A DNA stretch of 64,000 bases from Candidatus Wolframiiraptor gerlachensis. Its GTDB lineage: Archaea > Thermoproteota > Nitrososphaeria_A > Caldarchaeales > Wolframiiraptoraceae. A model generated the notes under the pieces. It had not been told where the DNA came from. It was given only the letters and a program-made list of their open reading frames with translations, and searched no databases. The position numbers were made by a program, and so were the translations under genes. Shown in pieces: positions 33,851-38,328 of this stretch; the first letter of the stretch is position 1; each line of letters begins with the position of its first letter. The stretch is from contig JAJPCT020000016.1 of the NCBI GenBank assembly GCA_021323375.2, positions 1 to 64,000 of the forward strand, given 5' to 3'.

Positions 33851-34765
33851 TCATAAAGATAGCTTGCGGCCGCGTCGGGGTAGGGCCCGCTCATAGACCA
33901 GTATCGTGAGGATTGTCGCGGCGGCTGAGGCGGCGATTAGTTGGAGCGTTTCATTCAGGCTTGTGAGCGCCCATGGTCTTAGGAGCATTGAGATGGCGAG
34001 CGCGATCATCAGGTAGCCCGAGAAGAGCTTTATCCTCCTCGACCATGCTTCCGAGATCCTCATTCTGCCCAAGGTGTATGCGAAGACGAGGACTATCCCG
34101 AGCATCGGCATGACATATATCATGTTGTAGAGCGCGAGGTAGATGTAATACTCCACATGGCCTATGCCGAGTGATGAGAGGAGGCTCGTATAGTATAGTG
34201 GGAAGCCCGGGGTGCAGGCGAGCTCGTATATGTTGACTGTGAACGCGAGCGCGGCCGAGCCAGCCGCTAGAGCCCCTAGAGAGCTTACGCGTAGAAGCCT
34301 TCTAGCGGATCTACCAACTTGGGCGAGGCTTTTCTCGGATGCGCCTAGGGATGGGCCGAGTCCATGGGCGAAATAGTCCTTCACGTTCAAGGCTCCAGCA
34401 GCCGCCACCATTATCATCACTATGAGGAAGAATGGGCCAAAGCCGCTCAGTATCCTGAAGACGTTGAGTACCGCGGCCATAAAGAAGAAGTAGGCGAGAC
34501 CTGAGATGAGGACGAATATCCCGCCGACTAAGAGGATGCGGGCGCGATCCCTCGCGTATATCAGGATACTGAGGAGGAATGTCAGGATGTAGAAGGCGCA
34601 GGGATTAACGCTATCCATCCCTGCGATCACGAGCGTGAGCCAGAGGAGGTTCTCGCCTGCGTTGCCGTCATCAAGCTGAGCCCCCATAGGGCCTAGCATA
34701 AATGCTAAGGATAACATGATAAGAACCGCTGCGAAGAATCCCCAAGCGATCCGCGAAGCCTTCAA
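33851..34765 (-). CDS. CcdA/DsbD-like membrane thiol-disulfide transporter
   Basis: DSVNPCAF and ELACTPGFP paired Cys motifs in multiple TM helices. Confidence 0.8.
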   Translation of the reverse strand: MKASRIAWGFFAAVLIMLSLAFMLGPMGAQLDDGNAGENLLWLTLVIAGMDSVNPCAFYILTFLLSILIYARDRARILLVGGIFVLISGLAYFFFMAAVLNVFRILSGFGPFFLIVMIMVAAAGALNVKDYFAHGLGPSLGASEKSLAQVGRSARRLLRVSSLGALAAGSAALAFTVNIYELACTPGFPLYYTSLLSSLGIGHVEYYIYLALYNMIYVMPMLGIVLVFAYTLGRMRISEAWSRRIKLFSGYLMIALAISMLLRPWALTSLNETLQLIAASAAATILTILVYERALPRRGRKLSL

Positions 34766-34814
34766 CCTCGATGACTTTTCTCAGCCATGGGATCTAGAAA
34801 ATTTTTCCATTCAG

Positions 34815-35297
34815 TTAGAGGTCTTTCTCGGCGCGATAAGCATCCCTGCCACGGCCATAATAATCCTTCAGCCTAGATGCGAAGGTGTATCCGAGTGACT
34901 TATAGAGCCTTATCGCGGGCTCGTTATCAACCGCCACCTCTAGGATCGCCCTCTCGCATCCGAGCTTCCTGAACTCGTTCTCGAGGCTTTTCAGGAGGGC
35001 TGCGCCGACGCCCCTTCTCCGGAAATCCGGCCTAACATCAAGCGTGTAGACATGGCCCACGACTCGGCCGCCGATCTTCTCAACTCTTCCTATCGCTGAG
35101 CCCACTATTTCGCCCTCCCCCGTAACAGCCTTCAAGGGGATGGAGCTTGGATCTATCAGGAGAAGTCTTAGAAACTGTTTCGAGTAGGCATCCCTGCCGA
35201 AGCAGGTTCTCTCCAGTTCATACATCCTCTCGAGATCCTCTAGGCTCGCCTGCTCGATCCTAATGCTCCTCGCTGGGCTCACGTAATTCATCAGCAT
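34815..35297 (-). CDS. rimI: GNAT N-acetyltransferase (RimI/Ard1-like)
   Basis: LDVRPDFRRRGVG, LEVAVDNEPAIRLY and YY..G.DA motifs. Confidence 0.85.
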   Translation of the reverse strand: MLMNYVSPARSIRIEQASLEDLERMYELERTCFGRDAYSKQFLRLLLIDPSSIPLKAVTGEGEIVGSAIGRVEKIGGRVVGHVYTLDVRPDFRRRGVGAALLKSLENEFRKLGCERAILEVAVDNEPAIRLYKSLGYTFASRLKDYYGRGRDAYRAEKDL

Positions 35298-35349
35298 GCC
35301 TTATATGATTCTATACTTCTCATCAAATACTTTAAGCCTTTCCTCTGAC

Positions 35350-35549
35350 ACGTCCCCCTCTTGTGATGCTTCTCTAGCCACCTCTCCCGTAGTGATCCCT
35401 GCGGCTATCGAAGAGTGTATCCCTTATGATATTTCCTTTTTTCTGTGATCCAGAAAATATGTCTTCTCATCACATATATCCTATCTCCCCGCTTATCAAG
35501 CCCATCCCCAGAACTGTTTTCTACACCCCTTGCATATCACTTGAACCAT
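35350..35549 (-). pseudogene. Possible decayed small Zn-ribbon gene
   Basis: ATG 35549 gives MVQVICKGC...; another frame gives KRGDRIYVMRRH...HKG; interrupted by stops and shifts. Confidence 0.3.
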
Positions 35550-35764
35550 CCCCATTTTCGGGATGGTCCTTAATGAATAAGTGGGGACCCGTGTCGGGGA
35601 TATGTGGGGATGTTATTGCCCGGGGTTCTAGCCGGGATTTTTGTCCTCTAGAATCTTGGCGGGATTGAGGGTTTCGCCAGGGCTTATGCCCAGCATTTTA
35701 GGGGAATCCATGATGAGGGCGCTATGTGGCGAGCTCAGGAGCCTGCTTGAGGGAGGTGATATGG

Positions 35765-36635
35765 ATGGCTAGGATCTATTACGTTGATGTCACGATTCCC
35801 AGTGATAGGAAGAAGATACATGCGGGTCTTTGATGGTGGCAGGGTTTTCAGGGTTGGGAGGCTGAGCGAGCTGGAGGATGCCAGCGAGGTGTTCATTGAC
35901 GCGCTGTTTCCGGAGCCATATGAGGAGGTTCTTGAGCTGTTGAGGAGGGGTTAAGGCGTATCTGCTGAAAGATATTACCAAGTTGAGGAAGCTGAGGATG
36001 GAGAACAACTTGAAGAAGAGTGATGAGAATGATGCCATGCTACTTATACGAATTTCAAAAGAGAATTTTAGACCACTAGCGATTGAAGAACTGAGGCTCA
36101 GGATGCGAATGGAGCCGCTGATAAACAAATATGAGCGGATTATGCGATGGAAGAAGACCTTAAAGAGGCTGGTAAAGCGGGTCTTGATTGCAATTTCAGG
36201 GAGGTAGTAAGGCTTATGAACGCGGATAGACAGAAGATATCTGAGGAGGTTATTCGACAGGTGACCTCTCTTCCCATCCATGGTGAGGTTTATAGGAGGG
36301 CCTGCGAAATCCTCGGCGTTAAGAGGAGCGCCGAGCTAGCCATACTGGCGGTAAGGCTACCACTTCATCTACCGATGGTAAGATTGAAAGGACTATTGGG
36401 ATTGATTCCGGGCGGAAATGGAGGGCGATATAACCATGAACTGAGAGCACATATTGCAAGCTTTGCAGCAACTCTCTACATGAATGCTAAAAGACATGTG
36501 AATGCTTCGGATAAAGTTGCTGAGGTCGTTAATTGTCTACCAAAGAAGATGGCATTATGCAAGTTACAGCTAATGACTGTAAAGGCGTTACGGATAGCAT
36601 ATATTATGACTGTGAAGCCGCTGGTCGGCGAGTAG
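35765..36635 (+). pseudogene. IS110/Nop-like RuvC-fold protein (about 290 aa when three frameshifts are repaired)
   Basis: SD GGAGGTGA; MARIYYVDV...HAVFDG...VFIDALF...KKSDENDA...coiled coil...EILGVKRSAELAILA...LKGLLGLIPGGNGGRYNHELRAHI; frameshifts near 35825, 35949 and 36178. Confidence 0.7.
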
Positions 36636-36758
36636 TAAAAGCCATAAAGACTGGTGAGGTTACACCCGGATTCCCACCATGGAGGATTTCATGAATCCAT
36701 GGATGATTTTATATGGTTCCCCTGCCGGTCTTTATGGCTACGAGGACTCGTCGGCCAG
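36621..36758 (+). ncRNA. Candidate structured RNA (bridge/seek-RNA-like stem-loop)
   Basis: Nested stems CTGGTCGGCGAGT/ACTCGTCGGCCAG, GCCATAAAGACTGG/CCGGTCTTTATGGC and CCATGG/CCATGG enclosing an internal loop; followed by a T-run. Confidence 0.55.
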
Positions 36759-36896
36759 TCCCACCCCCTAATCCCCTTTTTTATTAATTAAGTCTAGACT
36801 GGGAAGGGGAATGAAAACGAACCTAGATCTTAGTCTACTACTGAATTTTTATCTGGAAGAATTACTCAAGTTTGTTACTCGTGGGGTGCTGGAATT

Positions 36897-37685
36897 TTGG
36901 GGCCGCCGCTAATAATAGTGAAGCTCGGGGGATCTTTGATAACGGATAAGAGCCGGAGGTTCTCGCTAAACGCTGATGTGGTTAAGAGACTTGGAAGGGA
37001 GCTCGCCGAGGCTGTCAAGGAGTCGGGCGTGGATCTGATAGTCGTTCATGGAGGCGGATCATATGCTCATCCAATTGCTAAGGAGTACTTGGTCTCAGAG
37101 GGCTTAAGGAGCAAGGGGGGCTTGAGGGGCTTCGTCGAGACATCGAGGGTAGTTCGGATGCTCTGCCTCGATGTTCTCTCAAACCTTGTCGAAGGCGGCT
37201 TGATGGCAATATCAATACCAGCATCATCAATATTCACGACGAGATCAGGTAGGATAAGCACCTGTAATCTCGAGCCAGTATTTTCGGCATTGAGGCTTGG
37301 CCTCGTCCCAGTAACATCTGGCGATGTGGTTTTTGACCGGGATTTGGGGTTCACCGTCCTATCCGGAGATGAGATAAGCTCTTACCTGGCTGTCAGGCTC
37401 CGGGCGAAGAGGCTCATTTACACCATGAATGTGGATGGGATTTATGTTAGGGACTGGACGACCGGGGGAGTCAAGGTTGCCGAGGAATTCTCCCGGGGCA
37501 TGAGCATAGTGCCAGTCGGAGGCGAAGTCGAGGATGTCACGGGCGGGATAGCGAGGAAGATAGAGGAGGGCTTCATGGCAGCCGAAGCCGGAGTCGAGGT
37601 GCTATTCATCAATGGATTAGCCGAGAATAGGTTGAAGAATGCTATTTTGGGGCTGCCTGTTCCCGGGACGAGGCTTAAGCCTTAG
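36897..37685 (+). CDS. ipk: Isopentenyl phosphate kinase
   Basis: KLGGSLITDK, VHGGGSYAH, GDVV..SGD and DVTGG motifs. Confidence 0.9.
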   Translation: MGPPLIIVKLGGSLITDKSRRFSLNADVVKRLGRELAEAVKESGVDLIVVHGGGSYAHPIAKEYLVSEGLRSKGGLRGFVETSRVVRMLCLDVLSNLVEGGLMAISIPASSIFTTRSGRISTCNLEPVFSALRLGLVPVTSGDVVFDRDLGFTVLSGDEISSYLAVRLRAKRLIYTMNVDGIYVRDWTTGGVKVAEEFSRGMSIVPVGGEVEDVTGGIARKIEEGFMAAEAGVEVLFINGLAENRLKNAILGLPVPGTRLKP

Positions 37686-38328
37686 CCTGCTGGACCCTTA
37701 TCTGGAGGAATTCCTCGGGCTTAAGCTTCTCAGAGAGCTCGGGCGTCAGCTCACCCCTCTCCATCAAGACCCTCCTAGCCAGATACCAGAAGGCGTATGG
37801 TAGGGCCAGCCTCCCCCTATTATTTACCGGGATCACGAGATCGACGTTCGAGATCATGTTATCCGTGCTACACATGGCTATAACGGGGATCCGGGCTATC
37901 TTCGCCTCCATCACCGCCTGGTTATCATATCTCGGGTCGGAGACGAGAACAAGCCCCGGCTCTAAATATGTCTTAAGGCTCGGGTTGGTGAATGTGCCGG
38001 GCTCAAATTTCTCCACTATTGGTATGCAGCCCGTGTACTCACAGAACTTCCGGACTGGGACAACGCCATAGACGTGGGTTGAGACGACGACCACCTCCTC
38101 GGGCCTATAATATGAGATGAACCTAGCCGCGATATTCAGCCTCTCGATAATCTTGTTCAGGTCTATAAGATAGACACCATCAGGCCTAAGCTTGAAGATG
38201 AACTTCTCCATGTGCTTGACCTTTATCTTTGAGCCTATGTAGAGGCCATTCTTGATGAAGAGTTCCTGAATATTCTCCATCGAGTCTATGGATCCCTCAC
38301 TCATGCCCGCTTCCAGCCCGATAATCAA
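37675..38328 (-). CDS. rps2: 30S ribosomal protein S2 (uS2); start probably 38304 or later
   Basis: RPDGVYLIDL, FEPGTFTNP, DPRYDNQAV.EA and VIPVNNRG motifs. Confidence 0.95.
   Translation of the reverse strand: MIIGLEAGMSEGSIDSMENIQELFIKNGLYIGSKIKVKHMEKFIFKLRPDGVYLIDLNKIIERLNIAARFISYYRPEEVVVVSTHVYGVVPVRKFCEYTGCIPIVEKFEPGTFTNPSLKTYLEPGLVLVSDPRYDNQAVMEAKIARIPVIAMCSTDNMISNVDLVIPVNNRGRLALPYAFWYLARRVLMERGELTPELSEKLKPEEFLQIRVQQAKA

Follow-up and report, generated by a model that had tools for sequence, protein, structure and literature searches.

Introduction

IS110 and IS1111 transposable elements are said to work with a bridge RNA or seekRNA, IS621 and ISCro4 among them, and the accounts of this reportedly come from Durrant et al. 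and Hiraizumi et al. in 2024. In homing endonuclease genes and in TnpB/IscB systems, the nuclease recognises an uninterrupted site and is blind to a filled one. TasR of the TIGR-Tas systems cuts in a staggered manner, with 8-nt overhangs, according to Faure et al. 2025 (PMC12045711). The preprint of Vaysset et al. 2024 gives only IS110, Nop5/56/58 and Prp31 as homologues, and Nop5 is not descended there from any archaeal IS110 clade in its database. Here we describe an inserted element in a window of 64,000 nucleotides of Candidatus Wolframiiraptor gerlachensis (contig JAJPCT020000016.1). It carries the pseudogene of a DEDD/Nop-like protein and, overlapping the end of the gene, a structured RNA that in related copies reads both halves of the element's insertion site.

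With IS110, the element shares an N-terminal K-S/T-D-x-x-D-A motif, conserved acidic residues and a homologous C-terminal RNA-binding domain, as well as an RNA that is encoded beside the gene and reads the target halves, on opposite strands, with two guide strands in an internal loop. Unlike IS110, it has no catalytic serine loop and one programmable loop (no donor loop) instead of a target and a donor loop. Its ends are unconserved and it has no fixed core; it is found in either orientation and with direct repeats of 4-8 bp. Instead of sharing a repeated target, each lineage occupies a unique site of its own, and the protein belongs to no Pfam or NCBIfam family. TIGR-Tas offers a Nop-type RNA-binding domain without the serine (TasH is the best match in the Protein Data Bank, PDB, by sequence only), the same domain order of RuvC, linker and Nop in TasR, and a dual-spacer guide whose pairing involves each of the two strands of an approximately 18-bp DNA target. 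In contrast to the tandem arrays of TIGR-Tas, our element has a single guide unit in a long stem scaffold over the stop codon; its guide is aimed at its own insertion site, it resides in many copies as a mobile element in archaeal chromosomes rather than in phages or CPR bacteria, and its N-terminal domain bears the IS110-type motif.

Following the argument of Vaysset et al. 2024, the protein would also resemble Nop5 in its RuvC-like, coiled-coil and helical RNA-binding architecture and in the missing serine element. It differs from Nop5 in its intact acidic residues, in the lack of detectable sequence similarity and in the lack of a box C/D family match in Rfam; unlike box C/D small ribonucleoproteins, it is directed to DNA sites and not to rRNA, and the genome has a separate Nop5. 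Like homing endonuclease genes and TnpB/IscB, the element is selfish, with filled and empty alleles polymorphic among strains. Homing endonucleases recognise their site through the protein, and TnpB/IscB through a guide that is copied from flanking DNA beyond the element; recognition here relies on an internal dual guide RNA.

Results and Discussion

A conserved RNA structure follows the gene

Throughout, G000 is the source genome (1.28 Mb), and G005, G002, G008 and G011 are sister genomes. At the end of each copy of the element lies a structured RNA, about 140 nt long, which begins in the last codons of the gene and overlaps its stop codon. RNAalifold applied to 25 copies produced three stems with 31 pairs, 16 of them with compensatory changes. 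In the named structure, 94.9% of cells were paired, as against 20-42% when the partners were slid; the covariation score was 0.390 versus 0.256 and was reached by none of 500 shuffles. The window RNA (36620-36762) has a minimum free energy of -67.2 kcal/mol (z -5.81), and covariance model R1 scored it at 133.9 bits on the plus strand and 55.3 bits on the minus strand. Sense-strand scores were in general about twice the antisense scores. Because G-U pairs are frequent (in 11 of 25 sequences for two of the pairs and in 22 of 25 for a further one), the fold is strand-specific. Judged by these features of its sequence, the RNA is probably transcribed.

The covariance model found about 27 RNA loci in G000, some without any remaining gene, and in 14 of 15 named loci one sense-strand RNA stood after the gene. 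Its hits gave one RNA per locus and hence no tandem guide array, although no tandem-repeat search was made. Under the stricter filters of a large scan, the RNA was seen in 3 of 41 genomes. Rfam models detected no family above threshold between 35300 and 37000; the best was a C/D model, at 19 bits against a threshold of 50, and it fell inside the open reading frame (ORF). Only the loop between stems P2 and P3 is variable. The other internal loop is nearly invariant, with AGUA opposite GA, a putative loop-E-like arrangement, and inspection by eye revealed no consistent donor-type match of this loop to the element ends. One remnant, G000:C16:72547-72694, has the RNA module flipped between the two arms of its outer stem when compared with the gene remnant, as though a DNA inversion had taken place through the 13-bp inverted repeat.

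The RNA reads both halves of the insertion site

The variable loop contains two guide segments of 10-12 nt each. Its 3' strand (g3) has the same sequence as the top strand in one half of the insertion site, and its 5' strand (g5) is the complement of that strand in the other half. The two halves are adjacent in the empty sites of sister genomes. The guides together read 17-19 bp, on opposite strands, in the manner of tigRNA spacers and of the target loops of bridge RNAs. The clearest case is the C1 copy, a 1597-bp insertion whose flanks are contiguous in the four sister genomes named above. Here the flanks match the guides exactly at the junctions: 10 nt on the left are those of g3, and 10 nt on the right are those of the g5 complement. 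The insertion is flanked by a 6-bp direct repeat. The C4 copy matches at 12 + 10 nt and has an 8-bp repeat, its halves being contiguous in the empty site of G005. The intact C7 copy lies in the opposite orientation, again at a site contiguous in G005. Conversely, a copy in G005 (L054) matches perfectly at 12 + 10 nt a site that is empty and contiguous in G000. In the window copy, g3 agrees at 9 of 10 positions with the retained left half, and g5 at 8 of 10 with the empty site of G005.

For 16 RNA copies from G005 and G002, the right flank could be placed in G000. Their own guides outscored all 42 others at the G000 site in 7 of the 16, where 0.37 would be expected by chance. Within G000, 10 of 25 copies had an exact match of at least 9 nt to their own guide that beat 24 other guides on at least one flank; five of these ten lay in each orientation, and two more copies were confirmed through empty sites. 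Two of three copies in the distant G024 subfamily matched both flanks, at 9 + 9 nt. Flank matches of at least 10 nt were found for 7 of 15 RNAs at named loci, L164 reaching 11 + 11; this count is not set against a formal null where the orientation is inverted. The sites that were read showed no shared motif. Both the guide RNA and its targets have been found, and the protein is RNA-guided; this substantiates that part of the original prediction, drawn from the letters of the window, which had suggested a possibly RNA-guided nuclease or binder without noticing the RNA or its targets.

An intact contiguous target of its own was not found within G000 for any of the 25 guides at 19 or more of 20 positions, the best reaching 18 of 20. 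The halves of a filled site are 1.5 kb apart, and the element would therefore no longer target its own locus. The empty C1 allele in the closest sister (L107, G005:C4) has two central mismatches to the site specified by the guide; it could be a resistant allele or the result of simple drift.

Insertions are polymorphic, bidirectional and imprecise

At the window site, empty alleles are present in G005, G002, G008 and G011, where the flanks 34600-35310 and 36885-37900 lie 20-25 nt apart. In a hot-spring metagenome (run X2), position 35306 is joined to 36885 with 24 other letters between them, and this form occurs beside the filled one. Insertions vary in their presence between strains and also inside a single metagenome. 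The empty site of G005 has a right half that the window lacks. The short spacer between the two flanking genes differs among strains, three versions of it having been seen.

Insertions occur in both orientations. The direct repeats of 6, 8 and 4 bp differ between copies, and repeats of about 4-5 bp were seen by eye in the G024 copies. The ends of the element are not conserved, and its arms vary from 0 to about 350 nt. In two insertions the arms hold pieces of host genes that are present in full at other places in that genome, which gives the impression that the element had carried along DNA from beside an earlier site. The left arm of the window copy has single-copy matches in seven sister genomes. 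That of the C1 copy (L080:1008-1136) is 78-92% identical to C16:98634-98786. For four copies in G005, a search over 3.9 kb found no left junction.

Some copies lie beside tRNA genes, as seen by eye (L055 in G002:C55, G000:C1:63446-63560 and G000:C17:86600-86760). In one tRNA-adjacent copy, the 5' guide matches the apparent first bases of the tRNA gene, also by eye.

The complete genome G024 carries three copies (L096, L097 and L098, on G024:C1) that are 87-97% identical; the differences between their RNAs are mostly confined to a pair of short segments and to a hairpin with compensating changes. In these copies the acidic motif reads KSARADV, the first aspartate of KSDxxD being lost. The G024 guides differ in blocks of about 5 nt beside constant TTAA/ATTT. 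A conserved ORF of 136-186 amino acids on the opposite strand in G024 belongs to no Pfam family; a PCNA-like identity that we considered for it was a guess without Pfam support and was dropped.

The window gene is dead and its family keeps the acidic residues

The window gene is a plus-strand pseudogene that can be read in four frame pieces, 35765-35824, 35826-35951, 35947-36186 and 36147-36632. These align end to end with P0005, an intact paralogue of 294 amino acids on another contig of the same genome (G000:C1), and likewise with P0022, an intact homologue of 306 amino acids from another metagenome. The alignment places frameshifts near 35825, 35949 and 36180, in addition to a deletion of four residues. 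Contigs assembled from public runs of other studies (X2 records 2-4, X3 record 10 and X5 record 28) cover 35553-36265 with no gaps, and their indel table has no entries at the three frameshift places. Since these independent contigs show the frameshifts without indels, they are real and not assembly errors. The window copy is dead.

The original prediction had anticipated much of this. It had located the frameshifts near 35825, 35949 and 36178, had proposed checking them in reads, a check that the gap-free contigs now supply, and had put the repaired protein at about 290 amino acids, close to the length of P0005. It had also called the copy dead with intact homologues to be sought, and P0005 and P0022 are such homologues. 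The YVD, FID and KSDENDA motifs that it read as RuvC-like are present, the window protein having YYVD, FID, KSDENDA and GLIPGGNGGRYNHELR, and the acidic positions are conserved across an alignment of 50 members. Every member of that alignment has D8, E46, K90 and D95; D50 and D92 each occur in 49 of 50. The coiled coil of the original prediction is a putative feature, suggested by the look of the sequence. Against window positions 35732-36632, P0022 is 93% identical over the last 162 residues and 51-72% identical over the first 157, a contrast which suggests that the C-terminal half and the RNA module may have been exchanged between lineages.

The same alignment, assembled from collected homologues as had been proposed, upholds the earlier reading of a loop cut down without a serine and extends it to the whole family. 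The loop is shortened to P-x-K/R-N-x-G-R-Y; between P and RY, serine occurs at one position in 5 of 50 members and threonine in 7 of 50, with no conserved serine. The catalytic serine loop, as judged from the aligned sequences, is absent family-wide. Invariant Y128, Y182 and S194 lie outside the lost loop. Two distant members have longer loops, one with T-G and one with S-G.

A search with P0005 by tblastn located 19 protein loci in G000 with 31-70% identity per matched piece; seven appear full length and open, and the remainder are frameshifted or truncated. Copies within one genome are 40-65% identical in protein. These elements and their remnants make up about 1-2% of the source genome, all labelled hypothetical. 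Among 5.8 billion clustered proteins there were 157 matches, every given name being "hypothetical protein", and no Pfam domain was found in any of the 120 matches listed. When a profile was searched against 1.84 billion representatives, only 225 matches at E <= 0.001 came back, many of them fragments. By profile search, the family is present in 18 of 41 related genomes, across three families of the order. Named records belong to Candidatus Geocrenenecus, a genus that sits in Candidatus Wolframiiraptoraceae (NCBI taxonomy), and to uncultured Nitrososphaeria, with more distant ones in Candidatus Wolframiiraptor sinensis.

A remote relative of IS110 recombinases

Comparison by hhalign of 36 diverse members with nine archaeal IS110 proteins gave a match (probability 93%, E 3.5e-7) over the C-terminal 126 columns. 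The sole large gap in this match lies over the "SG...GRI.K" catalytic serine loop of IS110; the motif P-x(4-5)-SG was found in 7 of 9 canonical archaeal IS110 proteins. The narrower family alignment A1 matched IS110 more weakly, yet collinearly and at full length (E 0.0087), and P0201 matched the IS110 alignment over KSDENDA with E 0.0019. The IS110 DEDD domain PF01548 was the only recurring Pfam family among the 36 members, in register in 11 of them and below threshold (12-16 bits against a cut-off of 29). PF02371 had no Pfam match in family members. NCBIfam IS110 models reached E 0.013 and 14.7 bits, the cut-off being 140, and Pfam, NCBIfam and PHROGs together yielded sub-threshold transposase matches only. 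In a protein language-model atlas, the nearest named clusters fell in PF02371/PF01548 (0.95-0.96).

When the family profile was searched against PDB, it matched TasH of TIGR-Tas at E 7.5e-6 (21kl_A and seven other entries; query 131-256, chain 96-227), with no match to IS621 or ISCro4. The IS110 control profile in turn matched IS621 and ISCro4 at E 1e-39 to 1e-41, as well as a 331-residue "IS110 C-terminal domain" chain at E 1.4e-5, and did not match TasH. PDB sequence searches with P0005 or A1 returned nothing relevant. By these profile comparisons, the protein is a remote, serine-less relative of IS110 recombinases. Its parts would be a RuvC-like DEDD domain of the IS110 type, a linker of helices and, without the serine loop, an RNA-binding domain of the IS110/Tas type.

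The IS110 and TasH matches support the Tnp/Nop-like C-terminus proposed at the outset, where a lineage between IS110, TasR and Nop5 had been suggested. For Nop5, hhalign of a Nop5 alignment against the family detected no similarity (E 0.23 and 0.081), so a position "between" IS110 and Nop5 is not supported. Because the same method also misses the accepted IS110-Nop5 link (E 0.092, with small alignments), this negative is weak and the two may be very remotely related. The Pfam Nop domain (PF01798) was found in G000 in only one gene, the canonical Nop5 at C23.

Homing nuclease, recombinase or neither

We read the window insertion as a dead copy of a site-specific selfish element of 1.2-1.9 kb, found in hot-spring archaea of the Caldarchaeales type, and we give an even chance to the view that its intact form is an RNA-guided nuclease for homing or insertion and not a serine bridge recombinase. 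An intact element comprises the small upstream gene orfA, the protein of about 290 amino acids, the RNA of about 140 nt and a C-rich tail with a T run. The RNA would be bound through the Tas/IS110-type domain of the protein, and a protein dimer with one RNA would recognise the uninterrupted site. RuvC acidic centres would then cut both strands a few bases apart, with a TasR-like stagger; the overhangs described for TasR would fit the central 4-8-bp repeats here. The element would enter the break by repair or copying, which would leave 4-8-bp direct repeats, either orientation and imprecise arms. We prefer a nuclease over serine bridge recombination because the serine loop and the donor loop are missing, the ends are unconserved and the orientation is free.

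Several points weigh against a homing nuclease. Its nuclease activity is predicted from conserved residues only, homing by homologous repair would not yield direct repeats, and there is no explanation of how the guide comes to match a new site of 17-19 bp. Because the window lacks the right target half, only one half is shown by the window copy itself. There is no clear guide-flank match in 13 of 25 copies in G000, 9 of 16 in the relatives and 1 of 3 in G024; many of the unmatched copies are remnants, but the intact C5, C1_65560 and C16_88677 are unmatched as well. Finally, the most similar copies are those of G024, without the first aspartate of KSDxxD. Being the most similar, they are the most recently moved, and mobility may thus not need the full acidic set.

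The principal alternative, to which we assign clearly less than an even chance, is a serine-less RNA-guided recombinase or transposase, in which the RNA selects the target and the protein itself joins the DNA. Joining could employ another nucleophile, for which the three invariant Tyr/Ser residues outside the lost loop (Y128, Y182 or S194) are candidates, or the RNase-H-fold DEDD centre could transfer 3' ends to staggered positions in a DDE-like manner, giving repeats of 4-8 bp. Direct repeats at the centre of the target fit such staggered strand transfer, and the kinship to IS110 also speaks for it, as does a preprint in which a truncated target-loop RNA is reported to participate in IS110 transposition. 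Set against this are the absence of a second, donor loop, the remaining loop being invariant with no consistent end match by eye, together with unconserved ends, arms of variable length, the occurrence of both orientations and the loss of the serine loop that IS110 needs. These same features tell against a plain, very divergent IS1111/IS110 element with a 3' seekRNA or bridge RNA, since such an element should have the catalytic serine loop, two guide loops instead of one, conserved ends and one orientation, without 4-8-bp repeats. The RNA of IS1111 elements does lie 3' of the gene, the guides do match the flanks and NCBIfam IS110 models do give E 0.013; but the scores fall far under the cut-offs (14.7 versus 140 bits in NCBIfam and 12-16 versus 29 in Pfam), and we regard this explanation as decidedly improbable.

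It is improbable, too, that the protein is a DNA-binding regulator or an anti-mobile-element system without catalysis, comparable to nuclease-dead TIGR-Tas repressors and spread by something else. The loss of one acidic residue in the distant G024 subfamily would suit such a role, and repressor TIGR-Tas systems are reported in a 2026 preprint. The window's own subfamily, by contrast, keeps four acidic positions in 49-50 of 50 members, and the targets are the elements' own insertion sites and not promoters of other genes. Least probable of all, in our judgement, is that the 3' structure functions at the DNA level, either as a hairpin for recombination or as an inverted repeat, and that the flank matches stem from recombination at the site. 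P1 is indeed a 13-bp inverted repeat, and the segment between its arms is inverted in the C16 remnant described above. The G-U pairs and the roughly twofold higher covariance-model scores of the sense strand are at odds with a DNA structure, and the two segments with matches, both within an internal loop, are directed at opposite strands, a known geometry of RNA guides.

More broadly, and only tentatively, the homing nuclease could represent a living archaeal branch between IS110 transposons and TIGR-Tas or box C/D systems. It would be a self-contained RNA-guided homing or insertion system in which a serine-less DEDD-Nop protein and a single dual-guide RNA recognise a motif-free 18-bp site, make a staggered cut and install the element, each lineage being programmed for its own unique site. 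On this broader view it would also be a natural, compact and programmable module resembling a gene drive, and the kind of archaeal IS110-like lineage that the hypothesis on the origin of Nop5 had assumed to be extinct.

The combination of a serine-less protein akin to IS110 and Tas with its own RNA that spells both halves of the insertion site appears to be new. No description of the family was found in the literature on IS110, TIGR-Tas and Nop5 as far as the texts covered extend; their supplements, which lay outside that scope, could hold related families. A 2026 preprint survey selects IS110 elements by the two Pfam domains, neither of which this family scores. If our reading is true, the element represents a third use of the IS110/Tas RNA-binding module, which here has a single guide unit, lacks both the serine and an array, and is borne by the very element whose site it encodes. 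The finding bears on the open question of the evolutionary origin of Nop5, and it offers a protein of about 290 amino acids together with an RNA, about 140 nt in length, for reading 17-19 bp on both strands.

Layout of the window insertion

Features of the window copy are collected in Table 1. The element core at 35543-36776 matches other copies at 70-73%, and a longer match to window positions 35624-36898 is found at G000:C25:27366-28650.

Table 1. Features of the insertion, in window positions.
Feature	Position	Strand	Basis or remark
Left half of target site, kept beside the insertion	35301..35310	+	Equals window RNA g3 at 9/10 positions
Whole insertion, ~1.57 kb	35311..36884	+	Comparison with sister genomes and metagenome empty allele
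Left arm, captured host-gene piece	35311..35423	-	82% identity over 113 nt to G000:C13:3505-3617
60-70-nt repeat, part of the left region of related elements	35484..35552	+	blastn: 7 other loci, 83-88% identity
Start of conserved core (CATTTTCGGGATGG...AATGAATAAG), likely archaeal promoter	35553..35609	+	In 10/19 upstream flanks
Remnant of orfA, small upstream gene	35610..35772	+	Intact versions in G000:C5, C25, C16, C7
DEDD/Nop-like protein pseudogene	35765..36635	+	Three frameshifts; homology by profile comparison
Structured guide RNA	36620..36762	+	Covariance model, RNAalifold, pair counts, minimum free energy
Stem P1 of guide RNA, then conserved internal loop	36620-36632/36747-36759	+	RNAalifold
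Stem P2, then variable internal loop and hairpin P3	36641-36654/36725-36738; P3 36673-36706	+	RNAalifold
5' guide segment g5	36662..36671	+	Complement matches right half of G005 empty site, 8/10, by eye
3' guide segment g3	36709..36718	+	Equals left half of site, 35301-35310, at 9/10
C-rich tail and T run, likely transcript end	36760..36782	+	CCCCACCCC then T run in nearly all copies
Right arm	36785..36884	+	Common only to C25 copy; no other match in genome

The stretch at the start of the core stands 30-40 nt before the small gene and is a putative promoter. The T run probably serves as a terminator, by analogy with oligo-T termination in archaea. The 60-70-nt repeat recurs at C16:109681, C26:6712, C17:100213, C1:61483, C2:252, C25:26943 and C15:3704.

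In intact copies orfA encodes 53-101 amino acids, and its stop overlaps the start of the main gene. In the window, orfA is disrupted twice, once by an in-frame TAG at 35649-35651 and once by a change of frame. Family searches placed orfA in no Pfam or PHROG family. It occurs in two variants that are related by appearance (L153:1206-1487, minus strand; L152:1210-1512, plus strand), and the C4 copy is without it.

A G-rich stretch at the core start (35595-35612, GGGGATATGTGGGG) is roughly complementary to the C-rich tail at 36760-36776 (CCCACCCCC...CCCC), as seen by eye in other copies too. The two stretches may represent an inverted repeat of the core, though an imperfect one, or may pair at long range in the RNA.

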